A DNA stretch of 64,000 nt from an uncultured candidate division Zixibacteria bacterium (GTDB taxonomy: Bacteria > Zixibacteria > MSB-5A5 > UBA10806 > 4484-95): NCBI GenBank assembly GCA_963668625.2, contig CAXXKA010000008.1, forward strand, positions 768,001 to 832,000, read 5' to 3'. Every line of letters starts with the position of its first letter. Within the stretch, counting starts at the first letter, position 1. The notes beneath the pieces are model-generated. The model searched no databases. It saw only the letters and a list, made by a program, of their open reading frames with translations, and was not told the origin of the DNA. Shown one piece after another: positions 1 through 42,695 of the stretch. The translations under genes and the position numbers were made by a program.

Positions 1-261
1 ACGGCTATGCCGGCGCAGTTGCCGTTTTTCGTAGCCGCTTGCGACTATACCTTAATAGGCGAGGAGCTATTCGCCGCCTCGGCCTATCTATCTGGTGAGC
101 CTCGTCAATTAGGCAGTCTTAAAGGCCAGGATGTTGGCAAGGTTATCGCCATGATAGCTATTATTATTGGGGTACTGGCTGCAACTTTGCATTCGGCTAC
201 CGGGCTGGAGTTTTTCGGTGATTTTCATCAAATTGTGAAAGATTTGTTTACCACCAACTGA
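1..261 (+). CDS. Module 1 subunit A, DUF6754-like membrane protein (3' part only, starts upstream of window)
   Basis: Frame open from base 1; QLPFFVAACDYTLIGEELFAASAYLS...QLGSLKGQD is nearly identical to the C-termini of 3401-4657 and 6857-8044. Confidence 0.85.
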   Translation, partial: TAMPAQLPFFVAACDYTLIGEELFAASAYLSGEPRQLGSLKGQDVGKVIAMIAIIIGVLAATLHSATGLEFFGDFHQIVKDLFTTN

Positions 262-271
262 TGGATAGGAT

Positions 272-1033
272 ATGGTAGGGATAATAATCACAGCGATAGT
301 AGTAGCGATTCTGATGGCCACCATAATCATAGCGGCGACGAAAGCCAGTGTTCGCCGCCAGGTACCTCTTCTGATTACAGCCATTGTCGGTACGGTACTG
401 GTGGTATCGGTATTTATCCCGCATGATCCTTTCGGCAGGCTGGGTGAGGACTTTTCGGTATTTTTCGATATTATCGCCGTATTCGCATTCATTTTAGGCG
501 GCGGTAACCTGATACGCGTTCATGGCGACCGTATCTATCGTTTGAAAAAAGACTGGATATTCTCGATCGTTACTGTCGCCGGCTTTTTGGTTACGCTCAT
601 AGCCGGCGCTTTAAAAATCGGCAACCCGGATGGTATCCGTGGGGATGTGGCCGCGCCCGGTTCGCTTTTCACGTTGATTTACGATAATATTTTCACGCCG
701 CTTCAAGCCACGATGTTCTCCATCCTGGCGTTTTTCGTAGCCTCGGCCTCGTACAGGGCTTTCCGCGCGAAAAATAAGGAAGCTACTATCCTTCTGATTA
801 CGGCTTTTATCATTCTTCTGGGTAGAACACCGGTCGGGGATTATATCACGTTCTGGTTGCCCTCCTGGTTGAGTTTCTTCCATGTGCCGAATCTGGCCAA
901 CTGGATCATGGCTATACCTAATCTTGCGGGTCAACGAGCTATTATGATAGGAATTTCACTTGGCGTCGTCTCGATGTCGCTTCGCGTTATTCTGGGTATC
1001 GAGCGTGGTTATATCGGTTCGGAGGGCGAATAA
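272..1033 (+). CDS. Module 1 subunit B, polytopic membrane protein (extra N-terminal TM helix)
   Basis: Hydrophobic; shares R(Q/E)(V/I)P, ATxFSxLAFFxASAxYRAFR and ILG(I/V)ER motifs with 4674-5291 and 8059-8703. Confidence 0.85.
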   Translation: MVGIIITAIVVAILMATIIIAATKASVRRQVPLLITAIVGTVLVVSVFIPHDPFGRLGEDFSVFFDIIAVFAFILGGGNLIRVHGDRIYRLKKDWIFSIVTVAGFLVTLIAGALKIGNPDGIRGDVAAPGSLFTLIYDNIFTPLQATMFSILAFFVASASYRAFRAKNKEATILLITAFIILLGRTPVGDYITFWLPSWLSFFHVPNLANWIMAIPNLAGQRAIMIGISLGVVSMSLRVILGIERGYIGSEGE

Positions 1034-1034
1034 A

Positions 1035-1634
1035 GTGAAAGCGGTTATCCTGACAGTTATAACGCTTATGCTAAGCCTCAGCGCATATGGCGCCGATTTT
1101 TCGGATTACCGGCGCATAGCGATAGCCGCACCGCTTATCAATCAGATATTTACAAATCCCGAGATATCAGAAGCCGAAGATTTACAGCTTCAACCGGAAA
1201 CACAAATCATGTTGTACGAGGAGCTGGCGGGACGGTTCTGCGATGCGTTGGCCGGTCATTATGATGATGAAATCGAGTTTATCTGTTTTAACGATATTAA
1301 AGGCAAGCTCGATAACGATAGTTGGAATGAGTTCAATAAATCTTTCACCGGGCAAAATGATGTCACCCCGGAGACGGCCACGAAGTTTGCCGGGCAACTT
1401 CAGGCAGACGGCGTACTGAGCACGTACCTGATGTTCAGCTATTATGAAAGCGATGACAGGAAAAGAAATTTAGAACTTCATTTCGAATGGTACCTGGTTG
1501 AATTAGAGAGCGGCAAGGTTACACTTTCCGATCAATTCGATTGCAAGGATGATTTTGGTATTGATGAGGTATCCGAAAAAGAGGTGAAGTGTTTCAATAA
1601 GGTAGTCAAAAGTTTGGCGGATTCAGGACAATAA
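1035..1634 (+). CDS. Secreted protein, possible CsgG/LpoB/TolB-N-like alpha/beta fold, present only in module 1
   Basis: In-frame GTG at 1035 after GGAGGG; signal peptide VKAVILTVITLMLSLSAYG; RRIAIA...FAGQLQADGVL...YLVELESGKV pattern. Confidence 0.65.
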   Translation: MKAVILTVITLMLSLSAYGADFSDYRRIAIAAPLINQIFTNPEISEAEDLQLQPETQIMLYEELAGRFCDALAGHYDDEIEFICFNDIKGKLDNDSWNEFNKSFTGQNDVTPETATKFAGQLQADGVLSTYLMFSYYESDDRKRNLELHFEWYLVELESGKVTLSDQFDCKDDFGIDEVSEKEVKCFNKVVKSLADSGQ

Positions 1635-1637
1635 ATT

Positions 1638-2516
1638 ATGGCTGGTACTTTTTTCGACAAGATCAAGAATATCGACCGGCGGATCATATTCACGTTTATC
1701 TCACTTTCGGTGATAATTCCGCTTCTGTTGAATATCCGTTTCGCCGAGAAAGGCAGCCCGATTGTCACCAGTATATTCGACAAGGTGGAATCGCTGCCGG
1801 CCGGTTCGAGAGTGCTTATCTCGATGGACTACGGGCCATCTACGGTACCAGAAATTCAGCCGATGGTGAACGCTATCGTCCGTCACTGCAACGAACGCGA
1901 CCTGAAAATTTACTACATGTGTCTCTGGGCTACCGGGCAAAACCTAACTACGTTAACGGTCGATTCGGTTCAGGTAACCGAATTCCCCGATAAAGTTTAC
2001 GGTGTAGACTACGTGAATTTAGGCTATAAAGCGGGTAACGAGGGGCTTATCAATGTCCTGCTGACTGATATGAAGAAGATGTATACTACGGATGTTTCGG
2101 GCACGCACGTGGATGATATCGAGGCTATGCGGGCGATTAAAAACCTCACCAGTTTCGATCTCATATTCGGGCTCGGCGGTGGTACTCCGGGAATCAAGGA
2201 GTGGATACTGTTCGCCGGTGATCCGGGGCGTATTCCGGTAGCCGGTGGTTCGACCGCGGTTCAGGCGCCGCTTCTGTACCCCTACTGGCCCAATCAGCTT
2301 CTGGGCTTGATGGGCGGCATAAAAGGCGCTGCCGAATACGAGTCTCTTCTGAGAAACAACTACCCGAAATACAAGCAAATGAGCAGTCCGGCTTTACAGA
2401 TGATGGGGCCGCAAGCTATCGCGCATATCGTGATTATGCTTTTTATCATTATCGGCAATATCACTTTCTTCATCGAAAAGTCTCGTGATGCCAAACGCAA
2501 AGCGGGGGTGAGTTGA
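1638..2516 (+). CDS. Module 1 subunit C, two-TM protein with predicted extracytoplasmic alpha/beta domain
   Basis: IDRR-TM start, DY(G/D)P, YG.DY..LGY, GxKGAAEYE, QxIAH-TM; paralogue of 5305-6144 and 8703-9545. Confidence 0.85.
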   Translation: MAGTFFDKIKNIDRRIIFTFISLSVIIPLLLNIRFAEKGSPIVTSIFDKVESLPAGSRVLISMDYGPSTVPEIQPMVNAIVRHCNERDLKIYYMCLWATGQNLTTLTVDSVQVTEFPDKVYGVDYVNLGYKAGNEGLINVLLTDMKKMYTTDVSGTHVDDIEAMRAIKNLTSFDLIFGLGGGTPGIKEWILFAGDPGRIPVAGGSTAVQAPLLYPYWPNQLLGLMGGIKGAAEYESLLRNNYPKYKQMSSPALQMMGPQAIAHIVIMLFIIIGNITFFIEKSRDAKRKAGVS

Positions 2517-2517
2517 T

Positions 2518-3201
2518 ATGAGTATATCACCTGATATCTGGACCTGGTTCGGAGCTTTTCTGACCATATCGATTCTCTCGTTTCTGTATAAAGATAACGC
2601 TTTTTATAAATTCGCCGAACACCTTTTCGTCGGTGTTTCGGCTGCATACTGGATGGTGATCGGTATATGGGGAACGCTTTTCCCTAACCTTATCGCCAAG
2701 ATACATCCCGGGGCAGTCAGGTTCGTTCTGCCCTCGTTGGCCGATAGGGAACCCGAGTACTGGTATATCATCCCGGCAGTTTTTGGCCTTCTGATGCTAA
2801 TGCGTCTTTCGAGCAAACTGGGCTGGATGTCACGTTGGCCGCTGGCTTTTATCGTGGGAACCACCGCCGGTCTGAACTTGATCAGGTATCTTCGTTCAGA
2901 TTTTATCGGGCAGGTTCAGAATACGATGATACCCTTGATCGCTTTCAAGGATGGCTCGTTCAGTTTCCTCGATAGTTTCTCGAATATCGTGATTTTCGTT
3001 GGCGTATTTTGCGGATTAATTTATTTCTTCTTTTCCAAAGAGCATAAAGGTGGTTTCGGAGTCGCCAGCCGGATAGGTGTCTGGATACTCATGATAACAT
3101 TCGGCGCAGGTTTCGGTTATACCGTTATGGCCAGAATTTCTTTATTGGTTGGGCGGATGCAATTTTTACTGGGGGATTGGCTGGGAATGATTAATCGGTG
3201 A
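2518..3201 (+). CDS. Module 1 subunit D, polytopic membrane protein
   Basis: SFLYKDNxFYKFAE and FGAGFGYTVMxRISLL motifs; paralogue of 6144-6797 and 9546-10238. Confidence 0.85.
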   Translation: MSISPDIWTWFGAFLTISILSFLYKDNAFYKFAEHLFVGVSAAYWMVIGIWGTLFPNLIAKIHPGAVRFVLPSLADREPEYWYIIPAVFGLLMLMRLSSKLGWMSRWPLAFIVGTTAGLNLIRYLRSDFIGQVQNTMIPLIAFKDGSFSFLDSFSNIVIFVGVFCGLIYFFFSKEHKGGFGVASRIGVWILMITFGAGFGYTVMARISLLVGRMQFLLGDWLGMINR

Positions 3202-3400
3202 GCAATGTAGTTGTGAAAAAAAACATTAACGCTAACAACATTAAGATACCCAAAAGGTTAGCTTATTACTTTTACCATCAATTAACCGCCATAAATTTAT
3301 TTAAACTGGAAGTATGAAGCTTTAGATAAGTAAGTATGATGAGTGTAAAAATTATCATATGATATTAGTAAAAATAAATAAAAATAAACGGAGGTAGCGT
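3202..3400 (+). promoter_or_regulatory. AT-rich intergenic spacer, probable promoter region of module 2
   Basis: Sharp AT enrichment; strong SD GGAGGT just before ATG 3401; exact -35/-10 not assignable. Confidence 0.45.
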
Positions 3401-4657
3401 ATGAGAAAAATTAATGGGTTATTCGTAACCTTAATTTTCTTAATGTCATTGGGAGGAATAGCGCTCGCCCAGGGTGATATACCCGTTGAGGGTGAGATGG
3501 CCGTGGAAGCTGCGGATGCGCAAAGTCCACCGGCCCCTCAACCGCCAACCAATGTGATCATTACGGACAGACCGAATGATGCCGGCCATGGGTTGATGAT
3601 TGTATGGGACCTTTCGCCCGATGACGGCGCCGGAATGAATAGCGTACAAATGTACGAAATATTCCGTGCCGGTTCCCCTGACGGCGAATTCATATCCCGC
3701 GGCATTATTCCCGCCGGCGATAATGAGTTCGAGGATCAGGATGACCAGGAGAGCGGCGGCAGGGGGCCAAATCCCAATTATATGCCGTCTAACAGTACCT
3801 GGTATTACAAAATAACGGCGGTTTCAGAGGATGGTATTCACTCCGAGGGAACCCCGGTCGTTTCCGGTACTACCAAAGCTAACATTTTCCACTGGGGCAA
3901 ATTGCCGATATTGTTCGGCGTATTGATATTCGGTGGATTCTTGCTGGCTTTTATCTCTCAGGCCAAAAGTGGTAAAGAATTGTATGTCCGACCCTTATCC
4001 GGTATCAATGCCGTTGATGACGCTATCGGTCGTGCCACCGAGATGGGCAAACCGATCCTGTTTATTTTAGGATTGGGAACCGCCGGCGATATCGCGACTA
4101 TCGCGGGATTTACGATCCTGGCACGCGTGGCCAGGAGAACCGCCGAATACCAGACCAAGGTGCTGGTACCGGTGCAGGATCCTGTCGTGCTGGCCGTTGC
4201 CCAGGAAACCGTGAGAACGGCTTATCTGGAGGCCGGTCGTCCCGATCAGTACAATCCCGATAACGTATTTTACGTGACTGCTTTGCAGTTCCCATATGTA
4301 GCCGCGGTAAACGGTATCATGCTTCGTGAAAAACCGGCCACCAATTTCTATTGTGGCAAGTTTTACGCCGAATCGCTGATTCTGGCGGAGACCGGCAATA
4401 TCGCCGGTTCGATTCAGATATCCGGTACCGACGAGATCGGCCAGTTGCCGTTTTTCGTAGCGGCCACCGACTATACTTTGATCGGTGAGGAGCTTTACGC
4501 CGCCTCGGCATACCTGTCGCAGGAGCCGGTTCAGCTCGGCACATTGAAAGCCCAGGACTATACTAAGGCCGTGGTTATGGTCATAATTCTGATCGGCACG
4601 ATTTTGATAACCGCCGGAGCGACTTTCTTTTTAAATATGGTAACTGTAAACCTGTAA
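3401..4657 (+). CDS. Module 2 subunit A: signal peptide + FN3-like domain + TM + DUF6754-like domain + TM
   Basis: DRPNDAG..L.I.W...YEIFR...WYYKITAV FN3 pattern; RPLSGINAVDDAIGRATEMGKP, YAESLILAETG, GEELYAASAYL. Confidence 0.85.
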   Translation: MRKINGLFVTLIFLMSLGGIALAQGDIPVEGEMAVEAADAQSPPAPQPPTNVIITDRPNDAGHGLMIVWDLSPDDGAGMNSVQMYEIFRAGSPDGEFISRGIIPAGDNEFEDQDDQESGGRGPNPNYMPSNSTWYYKITAVSEDGIHSEGTPVVSGTTKANIFHWGKLPILFGVLIFGGFLLAFISQAKSGKELYVRPLSGINAVDDAIGRATEMGKPILFILGLGTAGDIATIAGFTILARVARRTAEYQTKVLVPVQDPVVLAVAQETVRTAYLEAGRPDQYNPDNVFYVTALQFPYVAAVNGIMLREKPATNFYCGKFYAESLILAETGNIAGSIQISGTDEIGQLPFFVAATDYTLIGEELYAASAYLSQEPVQLGTLKAQDYTKAVVMVIILIGTILITAGATFFLNMVTVNL

Positions 4658-4673
4658 CCCGGAGATTGTATTA

Positions 4674-5291
4674 ATGAAAAGAGAAATTCCAATTCTGATC
4701 GTCGGGATTACCGGTTTTGCTATGCTTATCCAGTATTTCATCCCGACCGATTGGTCACAAACTATTTTCACCTATTCCCAGGACTGGATTATCGTGATCG
4801 GTATTATCTCGATGCCCCTGGGCATTTGGAGTTTGGTGAAAGCTAATGTCTTGAAACTTAAAGTGCCCGGTGAGAGATTCTATTCGGCAGTTTTGCTGGC
4901 TGGTTTTCTTATCATGGTATTAACCTGTCTCAAGGACGAGAATCGTGTCATGGGCAGTTTCCATATGGATCTGTTCAGTTACGTTCTCGTGCCGATTCAG
5001 GCTACTATCTTCTCGCTGCTGGCGTTTTTTATCGCCTCGGCTGCTTACAGGGCATTCAGGGCGAGATCGGTTTTGGCCACGGTGTTGCTTGTAACGGCAT
5101 TTATCATAATGCTGCGCTTTATCCCCCTCGGCCCGATATCGACTCTCAACCTTACTGCCGTATCCTGGATACTTCAGGTGCCGAATATGGCGGCTAACCG
5201 TGCTATTATGATGGGAATTGGCCTGGGCGCTACAGCGACGGCCATGAAGATAATTTTGGGCGTTGAACGAACCTATATGGGTCATGATTGA
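4674..5291 (+). CDS. Module 2 subunit B, polytopic membrane protein
   Basis: MKREIP, ATIFSLLAFFIASAAYRAFR, IILGVER. Confidence 0.85.
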   Translation: MKREIPILIVGITGFAMLIQYFIPTDWSQTIFTYSQDWIIVIGIISMPLGIWSLVKANVLKLKVPGERFYSAVLLAGFLIMVLTCLKDENRVMGSFHMDLFSYVLVPIQATIFSLLAFFIASAAYRAFRARSVLATVLLVTAFIIMLRFIPLGPISTLNLTAVSWILQVPNMAANRAIMMGIGLGATATAMKIILGVERTYMGHD

Positions 5292-5304
5292 GAGGCGGTA
5301 AGAT

Positions 5305-6144
5305 ATGGATTTTATGCAAAAAATGATGTCGATCGACCGCCGTTGGGTATATCTGGCTATAGGATTAGCGGTAATTATCCCCGCTATCTGGTCGTTCGAT
5401 GTTCCGGTAGCTGTTTCGCCCGAGGTTAAAAGGATTTACGATTTCGTGGAAAATATGGAAGCCGGTGAGCATCTGTTTATCTGCGTCGATTACGATCCCT
5501 CCTCGATGGCCGAGCTAAACCCGATGGCTGTTGCTATCGTCAACCAGGCTTTCGAGAAAGATATCAAGATTATCTTCGTTACCCTTTCGCAGTTCGGTCC
5601 CGGACTGGTCGAGCAGATCACCTCGGGGCTGGCCGCCGATCACGGTAAGGTAAACGGGGAGGATTACGCTTTTCTGGGATATCGTCCCTACCCGGCTATC
5701 GTTATTCTGGCGATGGGCGTGGATTTCCGCGTACCGTTCCCTCAGGATTATTACGGTACACCGCTGGATTCGCTGCCGGTTCTGGAAGGTATCAAGAATT
5801 TCGATGACTGCAAAGGCGTGATCGAGATTACCTCCGGTAATACCGCCGAGTTCTGGTTGATCTACGGCAACGGCCGCTATGGTTTCCCACTGGCTATCGG
5901 TATCACCGGCGTTATGTCCGCCAACTACTATCAGTACCTCTCCTCGGGTCAGCTTTTCGGAATCATTCCCGGTGTCAAAGGCGCCGCCGAGTACGAGGAA
6001 TTAGTAGGTTATCCCGGCGAGGGTAAAGCCCAGATGGCCTATCAGGTGATTGCTCACGGGGTGATTATCTTGTTTATAATCATTTCGAATATTGCCTTTT
6101 TCACTACGAAAAAACGTAGAGGCGGAATAGAAGGAGGTCGCTGA
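5305..6144 (+). CDS. Module 2 subunit C
   Basis: IDRRW-TM, DYDP, GVKGAAEYE, QVIAH-TM, basic tail. Confidence 0.85.
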   Translation: MDFMQKMMSIDRRWVYLAIGLAVIIPAIWSFDVPVAVSPEVKRIYDFVENMEAGEHLFICVDYDPSSMAELNPMAVAIVNQAFEKDIKIIFVTLSQFGPGLVEQITSGLAADHGKVNGEDYAFLGYRPYPAIVILAMGVDFRVPFPQDYYGTPLDSLPVLEGIKNFDDCKGVIEITSGNTAEFWLIYGNGRYGFPLAIGITGVMSANYYQYLSSGQLFGIIPGVKGAAEYEELVGYPGEGKAQMAYQVIAHGVIILFIIISNIAFFTTKKRRGGIEGGR

Positions 6145-6797
6145 TGGTACCGGAAAATATGACAACTTATGAGTTGATTTTCAACGGAATTGCGGTTTTC
6201 CTTACACTCTGCATTTTCAGTTTCCTGTACAAGGATAACCCGTTTTACAAGTTCGCCGAACGTCTGGTGGCGGGTGTGGCGACCGGCTATTTTACCATGT
6301 TGTTGTTCTGGACGAATTTCATGGATAAAGTGGTCGAGCCGATTTTCTACAATGGCCAATACCTGTATATCTTACCGGCCCTTCTCGGAGTTTTGATGTG
6401 GACGCGTTTCTCACAGAAATGGACATGGGTGTCGCGTTACTCGATAGCTATCTATATCGGTGTCGGTTCTGGTGTATCGGTTACTATTTACCTTTACACT
6501 TACCTGTTCAAACAGCTTCAGGCCACTATCGCTTACCCGATAGGATTCGATCTGGCCGGTGTCAACCAGCTACTGGTCGTTATCTGCGTACTGGCATCGC
6601 TGGTTTATTTCTTCTTCTCCACTCCGCATAAAGGCGTGGTGGGCGCTGTTTCCCGGATAGGTATCTATGTTATCATGATCGGTTTCGGCGCAGGTTTCGG
6701 CCTGACCGTAATGGGTCGTGTAGCTCTTTTGGTCAACAGGGTGATATTCCTGAAAAGTTACCTCTTAGGAGTATCCAATTTCTTTTTTGGCGGCTAG
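6144..6797 (+). CDS. Module 2 subunit D
   Basis: TGATG overlap with subunit C; SFLYKDNPFYKFAE, FGAGFGLTVMGR. Confidence 0.85.
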   Translation: MVPENMTTYELIFNGIAVFLTLCIFSFLYKDNPFYKFAERLVAGVATGYFTMLLFWTNFMDKVVEPIFYNGQYLYILPALLGVLMWTRFSQKWTWVSRYSIAIYIGVGSGVSVTIYLYTYLFKQLQATIAYPIGFDLAGVNQLLVVICVLASLVYFFFSTPHKGVVGAVSRIGIYVIMIGFGAGFGLTVMGRVALLVNRVIFLKSYLLGVSNFFFGG

Positions 6798-6811
6798 GTA
6801 TTTAAATAGAT

Positions 6812-6842
6812 GGTGGGTCGATTCGTTCGACCCGCCTTTTTC
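6812..6842 (+). terminator. Rho-independent terminator between modules 2 and 3
   Basis: GGTGGGTCGA-ttcgt-TCGACCCGCC followed by T run. Confidence 0.7.
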
Positions 6843-6856
6843 CCAGGGGGATATTC

Positions 6857-8044
6857 ATGCGCGGGTGTAGAGTCCCGTTCCTCACGATTTTCACTCTGTT
6901 GACGCTGGTAACGCTGGTAACGCTGGTTTCGGCACAGGCCGATATGGATACGCTTACAGCGCCGGCTTTACCGCAGGTTGAAAATATCAAAGTATATGAT
7001 AAGCCCAACGATCCCGGCCGGACACTGGTGATCGAATGGGATATTCCGCTTTCTTATGATAAGACAACTGTCGCCATTGATGGTTTTAAGATTTATAATG
7101 CTGAAAGTCCGGAGGGGCCGTTCGAGCTTCTGGCTACACTGGCCGCCGGATCGAATCGATACGAATGTTCCGGCCTTACCGATGGCCACGATTATTTTTT
7201 CAATATCACTAGTTTTTCCAATTCTCACGAATCCGAGATAGCAACAGCCGGACCGGCCTCACCCAGCGGTCAATGGTTTAATACCGATCGTGTCCCGATC
7301 ATGCTTATGGTGATACTCTTTTCAGCTACAGCAATCGCTTTCATCACAAAAGCCAGGATGGGTTATAGCTTTTACGTGCGACCTATCGCGGGGATCAGGG
7401 CGGTTGATGACGCTATCGGCCGGGCCACCGAGATGGGACGACCGATACTGTACGTGCCGGGTCTGGGCACTGCCGCCGATGTCGCTACGATCGCGGCTTT
7501 CACCATACTCGGGCGAGTTGCCCGAAAGGTGGTCGAGTATAACACCCGGGTGATCGTACCCAATTACGATCCCGTGGTGATGGCCGTTTGCCAGGAGGTC
7601 GTAAAGGAGGCTTACTCCTCGGCCGGAAAACCGGAGCTGTACGACCCGAAAGATATTTACTTTATCACCCAGGATCAATTCCCCTATACGGCGGCTGTCA
7701 ACGGGGTAATGCTTCGCGAACGACCGGCGACTAATTTCTATATGGGGATGTTCTATGCCGAATCACTGGTACTGGCCGAAACCGGTTTCGTCTCCGGTTC
7801 GATACAGATCGCCGGAACCGATCAACTCGTGCAGATACCGTTTTTCGTGTCAGTTTGCGATTTCGTACTGATGGGCGAGGAGCTTTACGCCGCCAGCGCT
7901 TACCTTTCCAAAGAGCCTCAGCAGCTCGGTACTTTAAAAGCCCAGGACTGGGGCAAGGTTCTGGTTGTTTTGCTTATGATTTTAGGTGTAATATTCTCAA
8001 CGATTGGCTGGGAGGCATTCGCCGCCTGGTTCGATGTTGGTTAA
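6857..8044 (+). CDS. Module 3 subunit A: signal peptide + FN3-like + TM + DUF6754-like + TM
   Basis: DKPNDPG..LVIEW; RPIAGIRAVDDAIGRATEMGRP; GEELYAASAYL. Confidence 0.85.
   Translation: MRGCRVPFLTIFTLLTLVTLVTLVSAQADMDTLTAPALPQVENIKVYDKPNDPGRTLVIEWDIPLSYDKTTVAIDGFKIYNAESPEGPFELLATLAAGSNRYECSGLTDGHDYFFNITSFSNSHESEIATAGPASPSGQWFNTDRVPIMLMVILFSATAIAFITKARMGYSFYVRPIAGIRAVDDAIGRATEMGRPILYVPGLGTAADVATIAAFTILGRVARKVVEYNTRVIVPNYDPVVMAVCQEVVKEAYSSAGKPELYDPKDIYFITQDQFPYTAAVNGVMLRERPATNFYMGMFYAESLVLAETGFVSGSIQIAGTDQLVQIPFFVSVCDFVLMGEELYAASAYLSKEPQQLGTLKAQDWGKVLVVLLMILGVIFSTIGWEAFAAWFDVG
6902..6928 (+). repeat. In-frame 9-bp tandem repeat x3 (TLV-TLV-TLV) in signal peptide
   Basis: ACGCTGGTA ACGCTGGTA ACGCTGGTT. 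Confidence 0.7.
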
Positions 8045-8058
8045 GATGAGAGTTTGCG

Positions 8059-8703
8059 ATGCGTAGAGAGGTTCCGCTTCTTATAGTATTCCTATTCGGG
8101 ATATTCATGATCGTGCAGTATTTTATTCCCCATCGCTATATGGCGAATATTTATCAGGAGTTCAACAACTGGACTATCATTATAGGCATATTCACGATGA
8201 TCGTGGGCATCGGTTCGCTTACCACGGTTCATTACAGTCGGATAAAGTTCAGGAAAGAAGGCTGGTGGTATTCGGTGGTTACCATAATATCGCTTTTCGG
8301 GATGGCCGGAATCGGTATTTTCGGAGGAACCGAGAATGATCTTTTCCTCAACCTGTATCGTTATGGGCTTTCGCCCGTTACCGCTACCATGTTTTCTCTT
8401 CTGGCGTTTTTTATCGCCTCGGCGGCTTATCGGGCGTTCCGCGTGCGTAACATTATCGCCACCCTGCTTTTGTTGGCGGCGGTTATCGTAATGCTGGGGC
8501 GGGTGCCCGTAGGTGAAATAATCACGAGTTGGCTGCCCGAGTGGTCGCGGTTACCCAGCCTCGCTAATTTTCTTCTGACCGTACCGAATGTTGCCGCCAA
8601 GCGCGCCATATATATCGGAGTCGGTTTGGGCGTGGCGGCCGTTTCATTGAAAATCATTTTAGGTATCGAGCGCACCTGGCTCGGTGGGGATGGCGGTAAG
8701 TGA
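8059..8703 (+). CDS. Module 3 subunit B
   Basis: MRREVP, ATMFSLLAFFIASAAYRAFR, IILGIER. Confidence 0.85.
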   Translation: MRREVPLLIVFLFGIFMIVQYFIPHRYMANIYQEFNNWTIIIGIFTMIVGIGSLTTVHYSRIKFRKEGWWYSVVTIISLFGMAGIGIFGGTENDLFLNLYRYGLSPVTATMFSLLAFFIASAAYRAFRVRNIIATLLLLAAVIVMLGRVPVGEIITSWLPEWSRLPSLANFLLTVPNVAAKRAIYIGVGLGVAAVSLKIILGIERTWLGGDGGK

Positions 8704-9545
8704 TGGCCGAGAACACGAAAACATTCTGGGAAAAGATGCTACAGATCGATCGACGCTGGATATACCTGGCGATGGGCATCGCCGTATTCGTACCGCTCAT
8801 GTTCACTATGGGATTACCGGTTTATGTTACCGAGGAGGTCGAGTCGGTTTACGATTATGTCGAAAATTTGCCGCCCGGTACTGTCGTGATGATTCCCTGC
8901 GAGTACGATCCGGCCACGATGGCGGAGCTAAGACCGATGGCTCATGCTATATTCCGTCACTGTTTCTCGCGTGATCTTAAAATAGTCTCCACCTCCCTGC
9001 AAATCGAGGGTGTTACCCTGGTGAAAGAGGATCTGGCCTTGATTGCCTCTGAATATGACAAGAATTATGGCGAGGATTACGTATTCTTGGGCTACAAGCC
9101 TTACCCGGCTATCGTGATATTGAATATGGGGGAGAATTTCAGAAAACCGTTCCCCAAAGATTATTACGGTACCGAACTCGATGAATTGCCCATGATGAAG
9201 GGCGTGATGAATTATTCGAGCTGTGCCTGTATAATAAATATCAACGCCACCTCGGGGGCCGATTACTGGATTAACTATGCCAACGGGCGTTACAAGGCGC
9301 CGCTGGCGTTGGGAGTGACCGCAGTCATGGCTACGGACTACTACACGTTTTTATCCTCGGGACAGATATTCGGTTTGATGGGCGGTTTGAAAGGCGCCGC
9401 CGAATACGAGAAGCTGATCGGTAAAAGCGCCAGGGCTACAAAGGCTATGGATGTTCAATCGATAGCGCATTCTGTGATCGTGGTATTTATCATACTGGGT
9501 AATATCGCGTTTTTCGCCTCTCGCAAAAAACGGAGGGGGATGTAG
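8703..9545 (+). CDS. Module 3 subunit C
   Basis: TGATG overlap; IDRRW-TM, EYDP, GLKGAAEYE, QSIAH-TM. Confidence 0.85.
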   Translation: MAENTKTFWEKMLQIDRRWIYLAMGIAVFVPLMFTMGLPVYVTEEVESVYDYVENLPPGTVVMIPCEYDPATMAELRPMAHAIFRHCFSRDLKIVSTSLQIEGVTLVKEDLALIASEYDKNYGEDYVFLGYKPYPAIVILNMGENFRKPFPKDYYGTELDELPMMKGVMNYSSCACIININATSGADYWINYANGRYKAPLALGVTAVMATDYYTFLSSGQIFGLMGGLKGAAEYEKLIGKSARATKAMDVQSIAHSVIVVFIILGNIAFFASRKKRRGM

Positions 9546-10238
9546 ATGGAAAACCCGACTATATTTTCGGTATTCTGGTATACTCTGGCAGCATTTCTGA
9601 CATTATCTATCTTTTCATTCCTCTACAAAGATAATCCATTCTATCGTTTTGCCGAGCATCTTATCGTGGGAATTTCGGCCGGGTACTGGATAGCGATATT
9701 ATATCATACCTCTTTAAAGGATCTGTGGATAGAGCCGATGACCGTCAATTTTCAAGCCCTGTTTACCCCCGGAGGTTCGGTGTTTTACGAACTGGGCATG
9801 GTGAGCGTGAATATTTTACCCGGTATACTCGGTTTGATGATGTTTTCCCGGTTTACCGAAAAATTCTCCTGGCTCTCTCGCTGGCCGATCGCGTTCTACC
9901 TGGCGATAACCGCCGGTGTCGCCCTGCCGTTGTACCTTCAGAGCTTTACCGTGCGCCAGATGCAGGCTTGCATGATTGCCCTGGGCGGTTCACCCTATGA
10001 CATAATTGCCGATATAATCGTAATAGTAGGAACAATTTGCGGCCTGGCTTATTTCTATTTTTCGTTGGAGCATAAAGGAGCAATTGGCGGGATGGCCAAA
10101 TTCGGTATCTGGGTACTTATGATCGGGTTCGGTTCGACTTTCGGTTACACGGTTATGTCGCGTATCTCATTATTGATCGGCCGATTCAATTTCCTGATCG
10201 AATGGTTTAATGTTGTAAAAAATTACCTGATATCATAA
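9546..10238 (+). CDS. Module 3 subunit D
   Basis: SFLYKDNPFYRFAEH, FGSTFGYTVMSRISLL. Confidence 0.85.
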   Translation: MENPTIFSVFWYTLAAFLTLSIFSFLYKDNPFYRFAEHLIVGISAGYWIAILYHTSLKDLWIEPMTVNFQALFTPGGSVFYELGMVSVNILPGILGLMMFSRFTEKFSWLSRWPIAFYLAITAGVALPLYLQSFTVRQMQACMIALGGSPYDIIADIIVIVGTICGLAYFYFSLEHKGAIGGMAKFGIWVLMIGFGSTFGYTVMSRISLLIGRFNFLIEWFNVVKNYLIS

Positions 10239-10246
10239 TAATAGTT

Positions 10247-12103
10247 ATGTTTAAAAATGTTGCTAGCCCTATAAGCCTGGCTTATTTGTGTGCTTTATTT
10301 ATATTATTTCCAGAATGCCTGTTCGGGCAGACCACGCCGGCGGCGGAATATCTGTACGATTCCGTGATGGTGGAAATCCATCCCGATTACACCGCCGATA
10401 TTACCTACAAGAAATGCATACGATTCAACCGGGCCGGAGCCGATAAGTATTCGATTCTCAGGGTACCGGTTAATCAGCATATAGATTTCTCGCCGATTAA
10501 TTTCTCGACTCGCTTACCCGATGGCAGGGAACTGACTCTAGAACGGGGTGATATCGAGACTATCTCGGATTTCTCACCTCGTTACTACCCTGAAAGCAAA
10601 ACCAAGGTAATCTATATTCCCTCTCCCAGAGCCGGCGCCGTAGCCGAAATAGCCTATCGTCTGAAATTCGAAAGCCTGCTTTACCTGCCTCGATTTTTCC
10701 GTCAATATGATATACCCTCTAATAATTCTTATTTCGAGGTTAAATCGGGAATCCCCTACGCGTACTATATATCCGAATCATTAGAAATTGGTTTTTTACC
10801 CGATTCCATCCTGGCGGTATTCGCGCCGAGCATACCGGCCAGGATAGTAGAGCCGCATATGCCGGCTCATGATGACTACCAGATTCTGATCAAGCCTGAT
10901 TCCGTGGATTATATGGAAGGCAGGTATGGTTTTTCGCGCTGGCCGGATGTCGCTAATTTCTATAACGATATTTCACCAATGCATGATACGAACGATCTAC
11001 CAATCGTAATAAGAAACCTGGCTGACAGCCTGGTCTCAGGAAGAAATTCGCGAGCTGATTCGCTGGAGTCATTGCTGGGCTATGTATTGAATAATATCCG
11101 CTATATTTCCATGGATATAGGACGGGGCGAGTTCAAACCACTCGAGGCGGTCGAGGTTCTGAGCAAACGTTATGGTGATTGTAAAGACCAGTCGGCGCTT
11201 TTAGTCTCGTTATGTCGGGCTGTCGGGTTCAAGGCTGACCCGGCTTTAATGACCACCAGAGAGAAACCGGATGTTATCATCGAGATGCCCTGGCCGGGGT
11301 TTTTCAATCATGTAATTACCGCGGTCGATACGGGTAACGGCTATCTTTTCCTCGATGCCAGCCAGGCGACCTGTTGTTTCGGTAACCTCCCTTTCAGCCT
11401 GCGTAACCGCCGGGCATTGATATGTGGCGATTCCCCGTTTTTGGAATTCACTCTCACCTCGCCGTACGGACGAAACAATGATATCGATATCGATATGACT
11501 TATAACCTCAACGGCGGTAGTGATATGCGGGTGGATGTGCAAATAGAGATATTCCGCGACCCGGCGCATGTTTTCCATTCACCGAACGACAGGCAAACGC
11601 TTTCTAACGTTATTTACACTTTATTCAGCGAGGATATACTTGGCAGGTACAGCAATAATTTTCGTGCTGAAACTAACAGTCCCGATTATATCAAGATTAT
11701 AGGTGTTTTTTACGAGAATCTGACCGAGAGTAAGCCCGGATCCAGGATGCTCGTTACTACACAATCTCCTTATGTAAAAACATTACGGAATTTCTTCGTG
11801 CTCTCCGGGCGAACCAATCCCTATGAATTCGATTATTCTTTTAACGTGAATGAAACGGTTAATTTCAATATCGGTAACGATTACGAGGCGGAAAATGATT
11901 CACTCGTTATTTCTTTCAATGAACGTGGATTGAACGCCGAGTTAAGCGTACTCACGAATGATAATAACTGCCGGATTAGTAAAAGTTTCCAGTTGTTTAA
12001 CTATACACTTTCGGCGGATAGATATAACAGGTTCGCTGATTTTCTTTTAATTGCCTCACAAATTGGTTATAATTCGATAGAGTTAACCAAGGGGAAAAGA
12101 TAA
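10247..12103 (+). CDS. Secreted DUF3857 + transglutaminase-like protein, catalytic triad intact
   Basis: Signal peptide; NIRY, YGDCKDQS (Cys), FNHVI (His), FLDA (Asp). Confidence 0.8.
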   Translation: MFKNVASPISLAYLCALFILFPECLFGQTTPAAEYLYDSVMVEIHPDYTADITYKKCIRFNRAGADKYSILRVPVNQHIDFSPINFSTRLPDGRELTLERGDIETISDFSPRYYPESKTKVIYIPSPRAGAVAEIAYRLKFESLLYLPRFFRQYDIPSNNSYFEVKSGIPYAYYISESLEIGFLPDSILAVFAPSIPARIVEPHMPAHDDYQILIKPDSVDYMEGRYGFSRWPDVANFYNDISPMHDTNDLPIVIRNLADSLVSGRNSRADSLESLLGYVLNNIRYISMDIGRGEFKPLEAVEVLSKRYGDCKDQSALLVSLCRAVGFKADPALMTTREKPDVIIEMPWPGFFNHVITAVDTGNGYLFLDASQATCCFGNLPFSLRNRRALICGDSPFLEFTLTSPYGRNNDIDIDMTYNLNGGSDMRVDVQIEIFRDPAHVFHSPNDRQTLSNVIYTLFSEDILGRYSNNFRAETNSPDYIKIIGVFYENLTESKPGSRMLVTTQSPYVKTLRNFFVLSGRTNPYEFDYSFNVNETVNFNIGNDYEAENDSLVISFNERGLNAELSVLTNDNNCRISKSFQLFNYTLSADRYNRFADFLLIASQIGYNSIELTKGKR

Positions 12104-12116
12104 TCGGAGGGCCTGG

Positions 12117-14009
12117 TTGATAAAGCGATTCTTATTCATCATAGCGCTCTTTTTAACGTATAACGGGCCTGCTGTCTGCCAGGATTCGCCCCTGTTGTTG
12201 GGAACACTGGCAACTTATCCGGGGCAGGAGGCGGTATACCTGAATATCACCGACAGCACCGGCGTTAATTTTCAGGAGGGCGTATATATCTACAACCGCT
12301 TTTTCAAGTCGGAGGCGATAGTACTTCGCAAAGGTGGAGGAGGTATAGCCAGCGCCGCCACGCCTATCATATCGGACAAGGATAAAATAGAGGTTACGGC
12401 TTATACGATAACTCCCGAAAACGACACCATCCGGGTAGCCGACGATGAGATAACCACGCTGGAGCTTTTCGGTGACAAGAAACGGTATCTGGTGTCATTC
12501 CCCGATGCCCGTGCCGGAGCTATTTTCGTCATGCAATGGCGCATTGTCTCTATCGAGCCTGTGTTTTCCGGCCGGCGTTTTCTGGGAAGAACATATCCTG
12601 TTATATTGAGCCGAACAATTATAAGCGCGCCGACGAGCTGGGTATTTCGTTTCCTGGTTAAACCCTCGTTTATTTGCCGACGGGATCGCTCGCGGGAATA
12701 TATCCGGGATGAGGAATTGTGGATTAACTACGGTTGGGAGGCGAATTCTCTGCCGGGTTTGATTTTCGAGGAGGACAGCCCGCCAGCCTCTGATTTGATA
12801 CCCTGCCTGTACTACGCTTTCTCACACGATAAACGCTGGCCGAATATCGAGGATAACAAAATTGATTGGCCGCTCATATCGAATTCTTACGGCAGGCATG
12901 TTTTCGAAATAGGCAGGCCTAAAAACGAGATTAAAGATGAGGTCAAGTATCTTGTCGAGGGCGTATCCGAAAAACGCGAGAAACTCGCCAAGATAGTGAG
13001 TTTCGTGACGACGAATTTCCAATCGGTTTATTCCGATATCGATATCTCGGACGCTCCCTGGAATTTACTAACGCGTGGTTACGGCTCTCAGGCGGAGGCG
13101 GCAGTACTGGTGGGATCTTTTCTACAGGCCGCTGATATTCCGTTCGGTTACGTGCTTATCTCCACCCGGGGTAACGGCGATCCGATCAAGACGTTGCCGG
13201 CGCTTTTCTATTTTAATCGTTTATTGCTGGCAACTTATATCGATTCAGATACGTTATGGATTGATCCGAACTATCGCGGCGCGCCAATCGGGGTGCTGCC
13301 TTTCGAGGATCAGGCGGTGGAGGGATTAGTGGTTGGCCACAAATCCGGTGAATTCATAACAACCCCGATATCCGATTACCGGGAGAACGGCCATGCGACA
13401 AGGCTTACTATCAAGTTCAACGATAATGAACTGATCGCCGATGGGGTAGAGTTGCTCTCCGGAGCGCTCAATATAGAGGAGAAACATATCCTTCAGAATA
13501 TGACCGAGCAGGAGCGCTATGAACGCTGGGCAAGGCTGACCTCGGAGGGTATACCCGGGGCTGTTCTGGATGAGTTGGAGTTTCATGATATTTTTACCGA
13601 TGTCAACCCGTTCAAAATCAGTTACCGTCTTAAGGCGCCCGGTTACATCAAGTCGGCCGATCAACGACTGTATATCCCGATGGATATACTCGGGCGCTGG
13701 CAGATGAGCACCAACTACGATAATAGGAAACTGCCGATCGAACTGGGAAGACCACTATCGCAGCAGGAGCGGATTACTATCGAGATACCACCGGGATACA
13801 AGGTGGAGAACCTTCCCGAAAACTTCACGCTTAATACCTACCTGGGGGAGATACTTTCGGTCGCGGTTGTCACCGCCAATGCCATAACGGTTACTCGTGG
13901 ACTTGGCTTGAAACCGTATACGTTAAAACCAAGCGAGGCGGGAAGCTTGAACGGTTTTTTCAATACCGCCAGCGATCAAGCCGGGAAATACATAATACTC
14001 AGGAGATAA
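12117..14009 (+). CDS. Secreted DUF3857/transglutaminase-like paralogue, catalytic Cys and His absent
   Basis: GYGSQAE in place of YGDCKD, FNRL in place of FNHV, WIDP; C-terminal ITIEIPPGYKVENLP. Confidence 0.75.
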   Translation: MIKRFLFIIALFLTYNGPAVCQDSPLLLGTLATYPGQEAVYLNITDSTGVNFQEGVYIYNRFFKSEAIVLRKGGGGIASAATPIISDKDKIEVTAYTITPENDTIRVADDEITTLELFGDKKRYLVSFPDARAGAIFVMQWRIVSIEPVFSGRRFLGRTYPVILSRTIISAPTSWVFRFLVKPSFICRRDRSREYIRDEELWINYGWEANSLPGLIFEEDSPPASDLIPCLYYAFSHDKRWPNIEDNKIDWPLISNSYGRHVFEIGRPKNEIKDEVKYLVEGVSEKREKLAKIVSFVTTNFQSVYSDIDISDAPWNLLTRGYGSQAEAAVLVGSFLQAADIPFGYVLISTRGNGDPIKTLPALFYFNRLLLATYIDSDTLWIDPNYRGAPIGVLPFEDQAVEGLVVGHKSGEFITTPISDYRENGHATRLTIKFNDNELIADGVELLSGALNIEEKHILQNMTEQERYERWARLTSEGIPGAVLDELEFHDIFTDVNPFKISYRLKAPGYIKSADQRLYIPMDILGRWQMSTNYDNRKLPIELGRPLSQQERITIEIPPGYKVENLPENFTLNTYLGEILSVAVVTANAITVTRGLGLKPYTLKPSEAGSLNGFFNTASDQAGKYIILRR

Positions 14010-40379: not shown

Positions 40380-42695
40380 TTAGAACTCGTACTCGATCCC
40401 GAATATAGGCAAGGTCGACCACTGTTCGACCTCTCGTTGCTCGTTGGCGATCTCGTTCCACTCGTAAGTGCCGATATTTTTCCTGCCGTATACGTTCCAG
40501 ACACTCAGATAGAATATCAAGTTGGAGCCGGTGAAATTGAATCGCCTATCGAATCGGATGTTCATCGAATGATAATCCGGCAGTCGTTCGGCGTTGATTC
40601 GGTCGGAATCGTATATCCCCCGGCCGGCTGTCTCCGAGGCTGCGATATCAAATGGTGTGTAGGGGGCGCCGCCGGCATAAATCCACCTGGTGCTGAACTC
40701 CCATTTATTATTCGGCTTATATCCGCCCTCGATACTGAAATTAAACTGGTTGTCATAAGCCCTGTCATACCAGATACCATCATAGCCTTTATAACGCGTG
40801 CGCGAATAAGCTCCGCTGATCATCCCGTAGAACTGCTTGGCCAATTTTTTCTGCACCATGAACTCAATCCCCCGGGCATATGCCTCTCCCGAGGATACGA
40901 GCGGGTTTCCGGCCAGGTACACGCTTTTACCGGCTATGTCATCAACGATGAATATCTGTTGCTTGAGCGAATCGAGCGGAAAATCGCGGTATTCTTTATC
41001 GAATACCTCGATTGTCAGGCGAGTATTTTCGGTTAGCATGTGATTAATTCCGAATACGTAATGATATGCCTTCGGGTCTTTCAGGTCTTTGTTAGCCTCA
41101 TTTTGCGCCAGTATCGGCATCGGCAGGTTCTGATAGTAAATACCGGCCGCAGCGTTTAGGGTGGTCAGGCTTGAAAGTATGTAGTTGACCGATAAGCGAG
41201 GGGAGATACTGGAGTTCTCGTTATAGGTGAAATAAGAAAACCTCGTTCCGGCGGTGACTGACAAACGATCGAATGGATTTACCGTATAGCTGAAAAATCC
41301 ATGCAATTTAGTCTCGTTAATATTGTCATCAACGGAATATGCCGGGGTTACGTTACCCAGTTCATCGTAATATTCTCCATAGTAATTATTGTAATCGATC
41401 AGCGAGTATTTAGCCTCTACACCTAATTCTAACTTGTGAGCGTTGTTTAATTTGATGAAATTAACATTCCTCAGCTTGAATTCGTTCTCAGTCGAGTTAA
41501 AATCGAACGACATCAGTTCGGCGCCGTGATCGTAATAATATTTCGTGTCATAACCCGTGTAGTTATAGTCGTATAACGTATGAGATATGGAGGTGTTGGA
41601 ATAACCATTCGCTCCCCACAGGTATCGCCAGTTGATTCCGGCGGTATTGGCTGTCATATTGAAACTATCGTAATATTTCTCCTCCTCCTCGATAGCATCC
41701 TCGATCTCGTCTGCTATATCATCGATAGAGAGAATATTGAGCAAAGTAATCTGGTTATTGCCGTTAAGATCGTAAGTCACCTTGCCGTGAATATCGCCAT
41801 AATTCGGTACCGAACCGTCATCTTCGCCAATAGCTTTGACTATCAAATCGAGGAAGCTTTTTCGTCCGGCTAATATCCATGAGCCTTTATCGCCAATAGG
41901 CCCCTCGGCGCCGCCACCGAAACCGGCAAACCCCAGATCTAACTGGGCGTCGAACTCCTCCCGGTTACCATCCCGGAAATCGATATCCATCACCGAGGAG
42001 AGACGGTCGCCGTAACGAGCCGGGAATGCCCCCGAATGGAATTCGACATCCGAGACCAGATCGACATTGATTAGGCCAACCGGCCCGCCAGAGGAACTTT
42101 GTTCGGGGAAATGGTTGATATTGGGTATCTCTATATTATCTACATAAAAGCCGTTCTCGAATGAGGCGCCGCCTCGTACGTAGAGTGTGTTTTGGGTATT
42201 ATCGTACTTGGCGATACTCGGCAATCCCATTATCATCCGGCTGACATCCCCGGCGGTCCCCGGCATGCGACGGATTTCCTCGTTGGAGAAACTCACATTG
42301 CTGGCAGGCGCATCCTGACGCTCGGCGAAATAGCCGGTGGTTATCACTACCTCATCAACCTCGATAGCCGATTCATTCAACTCAGCTTTAACGAACGTGA
42401 TTCTTTTAGGACGTACGATAATATCAGCTTTAAGCATTACCTCGTATCCCAGTAGCCTGAATTTCAGCGAGTAATTCCCCACCGGTACGTTCTCGATCGT
42501 AAATTCGCCGTCGCTAGAGCTAACCGCGCCTTTTTCCGTGCCAAGCAGGATTACGCTTACACCGGGAAGCGCAGATCTTGTTTCCGAATCTATCACCGTA
42601 CCGCTGATACTACCCTTTTTGATCTCATCAGCAGAGGCTATCGTGAATAAAATCGCTATCATTATCAATGCTAAAATTATCTTACTCATTTTCAA
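40380..42695 (-). CDS. TonB-dependent receptor with carboxypeptidase-regulatory-like N-domain
   Basis: ISGTVID..LPGVSV, YVRGG..EN, NHF, GAFPARYGDRLSSV, terminal F. Confidence 0.9.
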   Translation of the reverse strand: MKMSKIILALIMIAILFTIASADEIKKGSISGTVIDSETRSALPGVSVILLGTEKGAVSSSDGEFTIENVPVGNYSLKFRLLGYEVMLKADIIVRPKRITFVKAELNESAIEVDEVVITTGYFAERQDAPASNVSFSNEEIRRMPGTAGDVSRMIMGLPSIAKYDNTQNTLYVRGGASFENGFYVDNIEIPNINHFPEQSSSGGPVGLINVDLVSDVEFHSGAFPARYGDRLSSVMDIDFRDGNREEFDAQLDLGFAGFGGGAEGPIGDKGSWILAGRKSFLDLIVKAIGEDDGSVPNYGDIHGKVTYDLNGNNQITLLNILSIDDIADEIEDAIEEEEKYYDSFNMTANTAGINWRYLWGANGYSNTSISHTLYDYNYTGYDTKYYYDHGAELMSFDFNSTENEFKLRNVNFIKLNNAHKLELGVEAKYSLIDYNNYYGEYYDELGNVTPAYSVDDNINETKLHGFFSYTVNPFDRLSVTAGTRFSYFTYNENSSISPRLSVNYILSSLTTLNAAAGIYYQNLPMPILAQNEANKDLKDPKAYHYVFGINHMLTENTRLTIEVFDKEYRDFPLDSLKQQIFIVDDIAGKSVYLAGNPLVSSGEAYARGIEFMVQKKLAKQFYGMISGAYSRTRYKGYDGIWYDRAYDNQFNFSIEGGYKPNNKWEFSTRWIYAGGAPYTPFDIAASETAGRGIYDSDRINAERLPDYHSMNIRFDRRFNFTGSNLIFYLSVWNVYGRKNIGTYEWNEIANEQREVEQWSTLPIFGIEYEF

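Follow-up and report, generated by a model that had tools for sequence, protein, structure and literature searches.

A DUF6754-associated four-gene membrane system, multi-copy in Zixibacteria and widespread among candidate phyla

Three groups of described systems come closest, in general layout, to the locus reported here. The tripartite ATP-independent periplasmic (TRAP) transporters of the DctQM-P type and the tripartite tricarboxylate transporters (TTT; TctABC) are operons for several membrane subunits, small as well as large, without an ATPase gene; they include a periplasm-facing alpha/beta domain and occur as several paralogous operons. The ExbBD-TonB, TolQRA and GldLM/PorLM systems are inner-membrane complexes with an immunoglobulin (Ig)- or fibronectin type III (FN3)-like periplasmic arm, present in several copies in bacteria of the FCB group. 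SecDF and the resistance-nodulation-division (RND) proteins have polytopic parts, carry periplasmic alpha/beta domains between transmembrane (TM) helices and likewise do without an ATPase. Here, we describe a four-gene membrane system, designated A-B-C-D after its subunits, from a stretch of 64,000 nucleotides (hereafter, the window; G000:C8:768001-832000) in the genome of an uncultured Zixibacteria bacterium (GCA_963668625.2; 4.3 Mb, 95.9% complete). Positions 1..10238 of the window hold three tandem copies, or modules, of the system on the plus strand, as found with the open reading frame (ORF) list and a script.

The A-B-C-D system is real, old, widespread and uncharacterised, and probably represents a new kind of membrane machine. 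It is nearly universal in the sampled class of Zixibacteria and in Cloacimonadota and extends to at least seven further candidate phyla, and despite this breadth, three of its four subunits have no entry in the Pfam and NCBIfam versions searched. Its host lineages are often encountered in sediments, in aquifers and in anaerobic digesters.

Distribution and co-inheritance of the four genes

A first-pass annotation, made from the letters of the window without database searches, had described the order A-B-C-D as occurring three times in the first part of the window, and both the ORF list and the paralogue alignments bear this out. Three is, however, the count for the window and not for the genome: tblastn searches with the window proteins found six complete modules, of which three are those in tandem, one lies ~70 kb upstream, one ~370 kb downstream (with an A protein of 336 aa) and one on contig C6, so that three had been missed. 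The same order is found in other genomes. We surveyed the best 80 of 195 related loci, which come from metagenome-assembled genomes (MAGs) of Zixibacteria, Eisenbacteria, Cloacimonadota, WOR-3, Coatesbacteria, TA06, Fermentibacteria, Stahlbacteria and Edwardsbacteria, with single MAGs labelled Planctomycetota and Acidobacteriota as well; the closest named relatives of A2 belong to Zixibacteria MAGs. In 87 of the 101 A genes in these loci, B, C and D follow in order on the same strand. Among the remaining A genes, 12 are cut by the end of the locus and two are odd, one being an orphan A (L043) and the other having no detected D (L056). The tandem repeat is far beyond chance, given the six modules of this genome and the same order at 87 of 101 A genes elsewhere, and the co-occurrence of the four families in a fixed order across phyla is what the first-pass annotation had expected of an obligate four-subunit system.

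Presence and absence follow the same pattern. DUF6754, the Pfam family of subunit A, is found in all 41 genomes searched in the window's class, its own genome included, with 3–6 matches each, and 56 of the 61 sampled Cloacimonadota genomes carry 1–4 matches. Matches also occur, 2–6 per genome, in single genomes from WOR-3, Eisenbacteria, Coatesbacteria and Fermentibacteria, and none was detected in 14 control model genomes. The five Cloacimonadota genomes that lack A (G047, G050, G053, G062 and G068; 1.5–1.6 Mb) also lack B, C and D (0/5 for each), whereas in the positive control, five Cloacimonadota genomes that have A, the other three genes adjoin it in every case. That the four genes form one genetic unit, inherited and lost together, is thus well supported by comparative genomics. 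The unit can vary in form: in G082, which belongs to Cloacimonadota, the genes at L102:3059-11084 are ordered A-B-C-D-A', with two DUF6754 proteins of ~950 aa around one B-C-D set and a gene for phosphatidylserine decarboxylase after them. In many genomes of this phylum, two long A genes are found ~5.3 kb from each other.

The copies within the window are strongly diverged. In local alignments, paralogue identity is 38–48% for B, 36–50% for C, 42–49% for D and 51% between A2 and A3; the partial A1 is 60–67% identical to A2 and A3, over ~60 residues only. Alignment scores are 342–902 for full-length proteins of the same family and 196–197 for the partial A1, against 33–46 for proteins of different families (A vs B and so on). 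In a quick maximum-likelihood tree of C (63 rows, with support from the Shimodaira–Hasegawa-like approximate likelihood ratio test, SH-aLRT, only), each window copy clusters with orthologues from other Zixibacteria (SH-aLRT 99–100), and two of the three clades include or adjoin Eisenbacteria sequences. Because the C copies group with the orthologues of other genomes, the array is, on the evidence of the tree, old, with every copy retained. This agrees with the earlier view of the diverged copies as selected paralogues and not the product of a recent amplification.

Predicted architecture and proposed function

Subunit A, in which the first reading had seen a resemblance to DUF6754, matches Pfam DUF6754 (PF20539) far above the gathering score of 27 bits that defines membership in this family of 257 model positions. 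For A2, the score is 383 bits (E 6.7e-115) over positions 2–255 of the model, the six A copies of the genome score 355–410 bits (E 7e-115 to 6.5e-123), and the match is present in 58 of 58 aligned A proteins. A2 consists of a signal peptide (~1–24), an FN3 domain (~43–163), a TM helix (166–188), the DUF6754 alpha/beta domain (~190–385) and a second TM helix (386–412). The FN3 assignment comes from the match of the A profile to titin FN3 repeats (E 6.4e-22) and from the model of A2, whose residues 43–163 are identified as FN3 by VIA (Z 13.4, rmsd 2.1 over 102 residues). With the Pfam fn3 model, no more than 4 of the 58 A proteins give a match at E <= 0.01. The AF2 model of whole A has a mean predicted local distance difference test score (pLDDT) of 68, with a confident FN3 domain and DUF6754 block means of 43–88, and it shows the DUF6754 core as a beta-alpha-beta domain with six predicted strands ahead of the last TM helix; the Foldseek and VIA match lists for whole A are filled by FN3 matches.

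The two domains of A differ greatly in conservation. Across 58 sequences, 39 positions of the DUF6754 domain are invariant, with G, E, D, T and Q prominent among them, and the domain is 54–62% identical between phyla. In A2, the invariant residues include R197, G210-G216, E269, E324, E330, Q339-T343, D357 and G362-E364. The predicted periplasmic ectodomain is the variable part of the system: it would be a single FN3 domain in the proteins of the window and almost nothing in the 336-aa form, in which the signal peptide is kept and a linker of ~40 residues replaces FN3, while in the Cloacimonadota forms of 920–1080 aa it would comprise the N-terminal ~700 aa, without a Pfam match except weak fn3. 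A sequence/profile search of the PDB with a 973-aa Cloacimonadota A found nothing, and a Protein Atlas search with the DUF6754 domain, restricted to named clusters, gave no usable match.

The succession of ectodomain, TM helix and cytoplasmic domain in A is receptor-like, and two PAS histidine kinases are encoded ~2.3 kb downstream of one module, as might be expected if A sensed a ligand outside and DUF6754 passed the signal on in the cytoplasm. We consider such a receptor complex very improbable, since A-D contain no output domain (kinase, cyclase or helix-turn-helix), no regulator is conserved beside the modules, some A forms have almost no ectodomain and three further, strictly co-inherited membrane proteins would be unexpected for a sensor.

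Subunits B, C and D have no match in Pfam, NCBIfam, PADLOC or PDB sequences, so that the profile check proposed for each subunit yielded a family model for A and none for the other three. Hydropathy on the alignments is in line with the earlier statement that all four subunits are membrane proteins; topology was derived from hydropathy and charge with a simple script, not a trained predictor. By this script, B and D are polytopic with ~6 helices each. In B2, the invariant residues include P6, F113, S122, A123, F128, R129, R176, G196 and E198, and in D2, they include N32, E39, Y155, F156, S159, G164 and R192. C2 has a TM helix at 12–28, a Rossmann-like alpha/beta domain at 39–234 and a TM segment at 239–276 with an invariant H251. 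The model of C (pLDDT 90.8) consists accordingly of a TM helix, a six-stranded alpha/beta domain and a TM helix. In VIA, its highest match is 1kjn (Z 10.1, rmsd 3.2, 138 aligned); below it, at Z 8–9.4, come numerous Rossmann-like chains that are unrelated to one another, RCK/KTN and SDR proteins among them, and the best Foldseek TM-score is 0.32. A conserved GxGxxG motif was not found in the C alignment, and C falls into 'hypothetical' clusters in Protein Atlas. Sequence and profile searches of the PDB returned nothing for B or D and only noise for C and for X1, an additional gene of module 1 described below.

No homology was detected between B and D or between A and C (profile-profile probability < 1%). 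Among 26 B proteins, Pfam matches are weak and scattered, the most frequent being TMD0_ABC in 6 of 26 (best E 1e-05), and at E <= 1, neither B (n=26) nor D (n=23) has a match, common to most members, to a transporter family such as TRAP DctQ/DctM, TctA/TctB or MFS, with single matches to TauE, FtsX and others. D varies in length through N-terminal extensions or a coiled-coil insert; in the 10 long forms scanned, no Pfam domain was found at E <= 0.01 except a weak RGI_lyase match under the cut-off. The D profile finds 2839 cluster representatives (50% identity) at E <= 0.001 among 1.84 billion. One protein of the representative library, P0189 (598 aa), is a natural C-D fusion with an extra TM helix between the parts; the portion corresponding to C shares 44% identity with C1 (E 7e-81), and that corresponding to D is recognised by the D profile. 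Since the fusion joins C to D through an extra TM helix, the N-terminus of D would face the periplasm. For A and C, we infer that the FN3 domain of A lies outside and its DUF6754 domain inside, and that both ends of C lie inside with its alpha/beta domain outside.

The products of the four genes most likely assemble into one hetero-oligomeric inner-membrane complex. Each A+B+C+D set would contribute ~16 TM helices (two from A, ~6 from B, two from C and ~6 from D), with the conserved alpha/beta domain of A in the cytoplasm and the Rossmann-like domain of C in the periplasm. In a complex prediction with A(159-418)+B+C+D, the ipSAE values with D as partner were 0.79, 0.78 and 0.79; both partner-replaced controls gave 0.00, but the control in which C was replaced gave 0.75, and we count this prediction neither for nor against assembly. 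Family scans found no ATPase, kinase or cofactor family in A-D or X1, as the motif inspection of the first reading had also concluded, and for an ABC-type or other primary pump in particular, no ATPase family was found in A-D, X1 or the scanned flanking genes of the six modules of this genome. These helices, the co-inheritance, the domains on two faces of the membrane, the lack of an ATPase, the paralogues, the variable ectodomain and the conserved cytoplasmic domain lead us to a tentative proposal, which we favour while placing it at somewhat less than even odds: A-B-C-D may be an ATP-independent hetero-oligomeric inner-membrane translocase whose paralogues are specialised through the variable ectodomain of A. 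Such a translocase would carry its substrate from the cytoplasm to the cell envelope or in the reverse direction without ATP, probably coupled to an ion gradient. The membrane pathway would be formed by B and D, coupling would be provided by invariant polar residues in the membrane (H251 of C; E39 and R192 of D; R129, R176 and E198 of B), and the ectodomain of A would set the specificity or the partner of each paralogue.

The same features could also be read as those of a trans-envelope energiser or motor-like platform, in which ion flow through B, D and C would move the ectodomain of A, which would reach outer-membrane or surface partners, with one module per set of partners; in function, this would parallel ExbBD-TonB, TolQRA or GldLM. 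An ectodomain that can be as little as a short linker or as much as ~700 aa of FN3-like sequence would suit a periplasm-spanning arm, genomes carry 2–6 modules, as is the case for multiple TonB systems, and invariant polar or charged residues lie in or near TM helices. We nevertheless regard this explanation as rather unlikely, because B and D match neither MotA_ExbB nor any other stator family; PF01618 (MotA/ExbB/TolQ) had no match in the scanned window copies of B and D or in the 26 B and 23 D proteins at E <= 1. A role as a 'missing TonB energiser' was ruled out separately: the genome already has five MotA/ExbB-family (PF01618) matches, all elsewhere, alongside its 11 Plug receptors.

Several observations weigh against the translocase. 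B, D and the DUF6754 domain have no homology or fold match to any transporter family, although the comparison was made at the sequence and profile level and they may match a known non-transport fold. No substrate-binding protein, riboswitch or metabolic neighbour hints at a solute, and the conserved neighbours are envelope-related, not metabolic: a transglutaminase-like gene in Zixibacteria, and M23 peptidase, RseP, TagF-like, Psd and SecDF genes in Cloacimonadota. The topology itself comes from a crude hydropathy script. In addition, the conservation of DUF6754, with many acidic and glycine residues among its invariant positions, would fit an enzyme or an energy-coupling core better than a carrier component with a passive role.

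This conservation is also an argument for a membrane-bound enzyme or envelope-biogenesis complex, in which DUF6754 would be catalytic, with a precursor that is lipid-linked or nucleotide-activated as one example of a substrate, B, C and D would pass the product to the periplasm, and the paralogues would serve different envelope or surface products. Two of the 120 listed B homologues are named 'FlaA1/EpsC-like NDP-sugar epimerase' in records of the Joint Genome Institute (JGI), most of the others being unnamed or 'hypothetical'; these two names are probably spurious and due to membrane-domain resemblance. Although the envelope-related neighbours described below also point in this direction, no enzyme family was detected in any subunit, and we consider an enzyme complex unlikely, if less so than an energiser. 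A further reading, to which we give a similarly small chance as to the energiser, would make A-B-C-D a hitherto undescribed class of energy-transducing membrane machinery, with DUF6754 as a new catalytic or energy-coupling module that drives B, C and D to move either a substrate or the periplasm-spanning ectodomain of A. The system would then be a primary transporter or a trans-envelope motor of a new kind, with no relation to ABC, P-type, Sec, RND and MotA/ExbB systems.

The array and its genomic surroundings

The features of the array are listed in Table 1. The five signature motifs noted in the first reading (AIGRATEMG, GEELYAASAYL, AFFxASAxYRAFR, KGAAEYE and SFLYKDN) are present in every copy that spans the site. 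The tight spacing within modules, given there as about 16 bp or less, applies to all junctions (-4 to 16 bp) except B1-C1, where 604 bp separate the two genes. This interval is occupied by a fifth gene, X1, so that the description of the copies as four-gene units stands for modules 2 and 3 and not for module 1. The start of the A1 gene lies ~978 bp before the window (L097:11023), and the full protein has ~412 aa, including a signal peptide and FN3. Between modules, the gaps are 199 bp (D1-A2) and 59 bp (D2-A3), and because the latter contains a terminator-like hairpin, modules 2 and 3 are probably separate transcripts. Of the listed sequencing runs that contain the stretch, two from one study are of DNA type and none is of RNA type, a listing that bears on expression in neither direction.

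Table 1. Coordinates of the genes and of the hairpin in and directly after the A-B-C-D array (window positions)
Feature	Position	Strand	Description
A1	<1..261	+	C-terminal 86 aa of DUF6754 protein
B1	272..1033	+	Polytopic membrane protein, 253 aa; N-terminal extension of ~26 aa relative to B2/B3
X1	1035..1634	+	199 aa, GTG start, signal peptide, no family match
C1	1638..2516	+	TM helix, alpha/beta domain, TM helix; 292 aa
D1	2518..3201	+	Polytopic membrane protein, 227 aa
A2	3401..4657	+	DUF6754 protein, 418 aa
B2	4674..5291	+	205 aa, ~6 TM helices
C2	5305..6144	+	279 aa, TM / Rossmann-like alpha/beta / TM
D2	6144..6797	+	217 aa, ~6 TM helices
Hairpin, terminator-like	6812..6836	+	10 pairs, 7 of them G-C, then T run; D2-A3 gap
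A3	6857..8044	+	DUF6754 protein, 395 aa
B3	8059..8703	+	214 aa
C3	8700/8703..9545	+	281 aa (GTG at 8700) or 280 aa (ATG at 8703, overlapping B3 stop codon)
D3	9546..10238	+	230 aa
DUF3857 / transglutaminase-core protein, secreted	10247..12103	+	Begins 8 bp past D3
Second DUF3857 protein, secreted	12117..14009	+	Downstream of first DUF3857 gene

X1 begins with a GTG one base past the B1 stop codon, with GGAGG 8–9 nt upstream. Homologues of X1 occupy the same position between B and C in three close Zixibacteria loci (L018, L022 and L025) and in no other module, so that the A-B-X-C-D variant consists of module 1 and its orthologues in these loci. X1 matches no PADLOC family at E <= 0.01 and no family elsewhere.

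Among the flanking genes scanned around the six modules of this genome, no neighbour is common to all. The neighbours include genes for type IX secretion system (T9SS) cargo, a pentapeptide-repeat protein, PAS histidine kinases, an AsmA-family protein, a DUF72 protein, a D-Ala-D-Ala carboxypeptidase and two transposases. One transposase, of the DDE type, lies ~2 kb upstream of the C8:695k module (L098:4672-5841), and the other, of the IS110 family, lies ~2.5 kb downstream of the C6 module (L100:13771-14886). Since no ATPase, kinase or cofactor family occurs in the subunits and no neighbour is shared by the six modules, the four genes look self-sufficient. Directly upstream of the array (L097:2548-10473, equivalent to G000:C8:758548-766473), four genes carry T9SS C-terminal sorting domains (Por_Secre_tail), together with Omp28, beta-helix, HYDIN/VesB-like Ig and NIDO domains. 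Within the window, a TonB-dependent receptor is encoded by a 771-aa ORF at 40380..42695 on the minus strand, with its Plug domain at C8:810003-810320. The T9SS cargo and the receptor would be in keeping with an energiser that acts on surface partners, but a conserved outer-membrane partner beside the modules was not found. Rfam searches of the window and of four loci of the same genome (130 kb, six modules) gave no matches and revealed no riboswitch.

Across the 80 loci, flanking ORFs cluster only within lineages, and in ten representatives scanned with Pfam, no neighbour family is common to all phyla; the neighbours there include M23 peptidase, RseP, GT4, SpoU, Band_7, GcvP and a PF13941 MutL-like protein. 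For a complex that builds the envelope, the transglutaminase-core gene, the T9SS cargo, the AsmA-family protein and the carboxypeptidase near the modules in this genome, and the M23 peptidase, RseP, GT4, TagF-like and Psd genes near those of Cloacimonadota, are all plausible companions. The neighbours differ, however, among phyla and among the six modules of this genome, and the association is weak beyond the transglutaminase-like gene. In 10–11 loci of the Eisenbacteria type (e.g. L038:2820-5804), a PF13941 'MutL' gene (ASKHA-type, ATPase-like) and an unannotated gene of 374 aa lie directly upstream of A; the two may be accessory genes specific to this lineage or may simply reflect synteny.

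The DUF3857/transglutaminase-core gene that follows the last module of the array had been overlooked in the first-pass annotation. Among 24 relatives that have a homologue, it is found directly after the last module in at least 15, including relatives at the order level, at 24–30% identity. This placement rests on a comparison of coordinates, in which the homologue lies on the same strand 2.3–2.5 kb beyond the last DUF6754 match, leaving room for B, C and D; in the other nine relatives, DUF6754 on the same contig was absent among the matches listed, and many of the contigs are short. The retention of the gene after the last module in 15 relatives suggests that it is functionally tied to the array.

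Comparison with described systems

A-B-C-D is a core membrane system kept in several copies; it has predicted domains on either side of the membrane, no source of energy can be recognised in it, and it marks a gap in what is known of the physiology of abundant uncultured lineages. If it proves to be a new class of transporter or energiser, it would add a new family to membrane biology, while as an envelope-biogenesis enzyme complex, it would offer insight into what sets the envelopes of these phyla apart from the model diderms.

The first-pass annotation had allowed for the possibility that the subunits would match an already characterised complex; sequence, profile and defence-model searches brought no such match. 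Pfam DUF6754, whose whole model is matched by all A copies, is a catalogue entry that carries no functional assignment and covers one of the four subunits. In their source records, homologues of A and B go by 'hypothetical protein' or 'DUF6754 domain-containing protein', the two JGI labels discussed above excepted. A defence role was considered and set aside, as PADLOC-DB returned no families for A2, B2, C2, D2 and X1 at E <= 0.01. In a literature search of full texts, no paper naming DUF6754 or PF20539 was found, although supplements might list families, and the portions of the literature on Zixibacteria and Cloacimonadota membrane complexes that were available to us contained none on an A-B-C-D system.

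Among the systems that A-B-C-D resembles in layout, TRAP and TTT transporters have no sequence or profile match to any subunit and no counterpart of the conserved cytoplasmic domain of A. Subunit C also differs from their binding proteins, being predicted as one Rossmann-like lobe held between two TM helices and not as a free two-lobed protein. With regard to ExbBD-TonB, TolQRA and GldLM, no MotA_ExbB or ExbD match exists in B, C or D, A-B-C-D has four subunits with a predicted ~16 TM helices, and the genome has canonical ExbB-family genes at other loci. SecDF and RND proteins differ in subunit make-up and show no SecD_SecF or ACR_tran Pfam match to A-D, and DUF6754 has no cytoplasmic counterpart in SecDF. 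While a tie at the level of fold could remain, by every test run, A-B-C-D appears unrelated to ABC, TRAP/TTT, RND/SecDF, MotA/ExbB and known defence systems.

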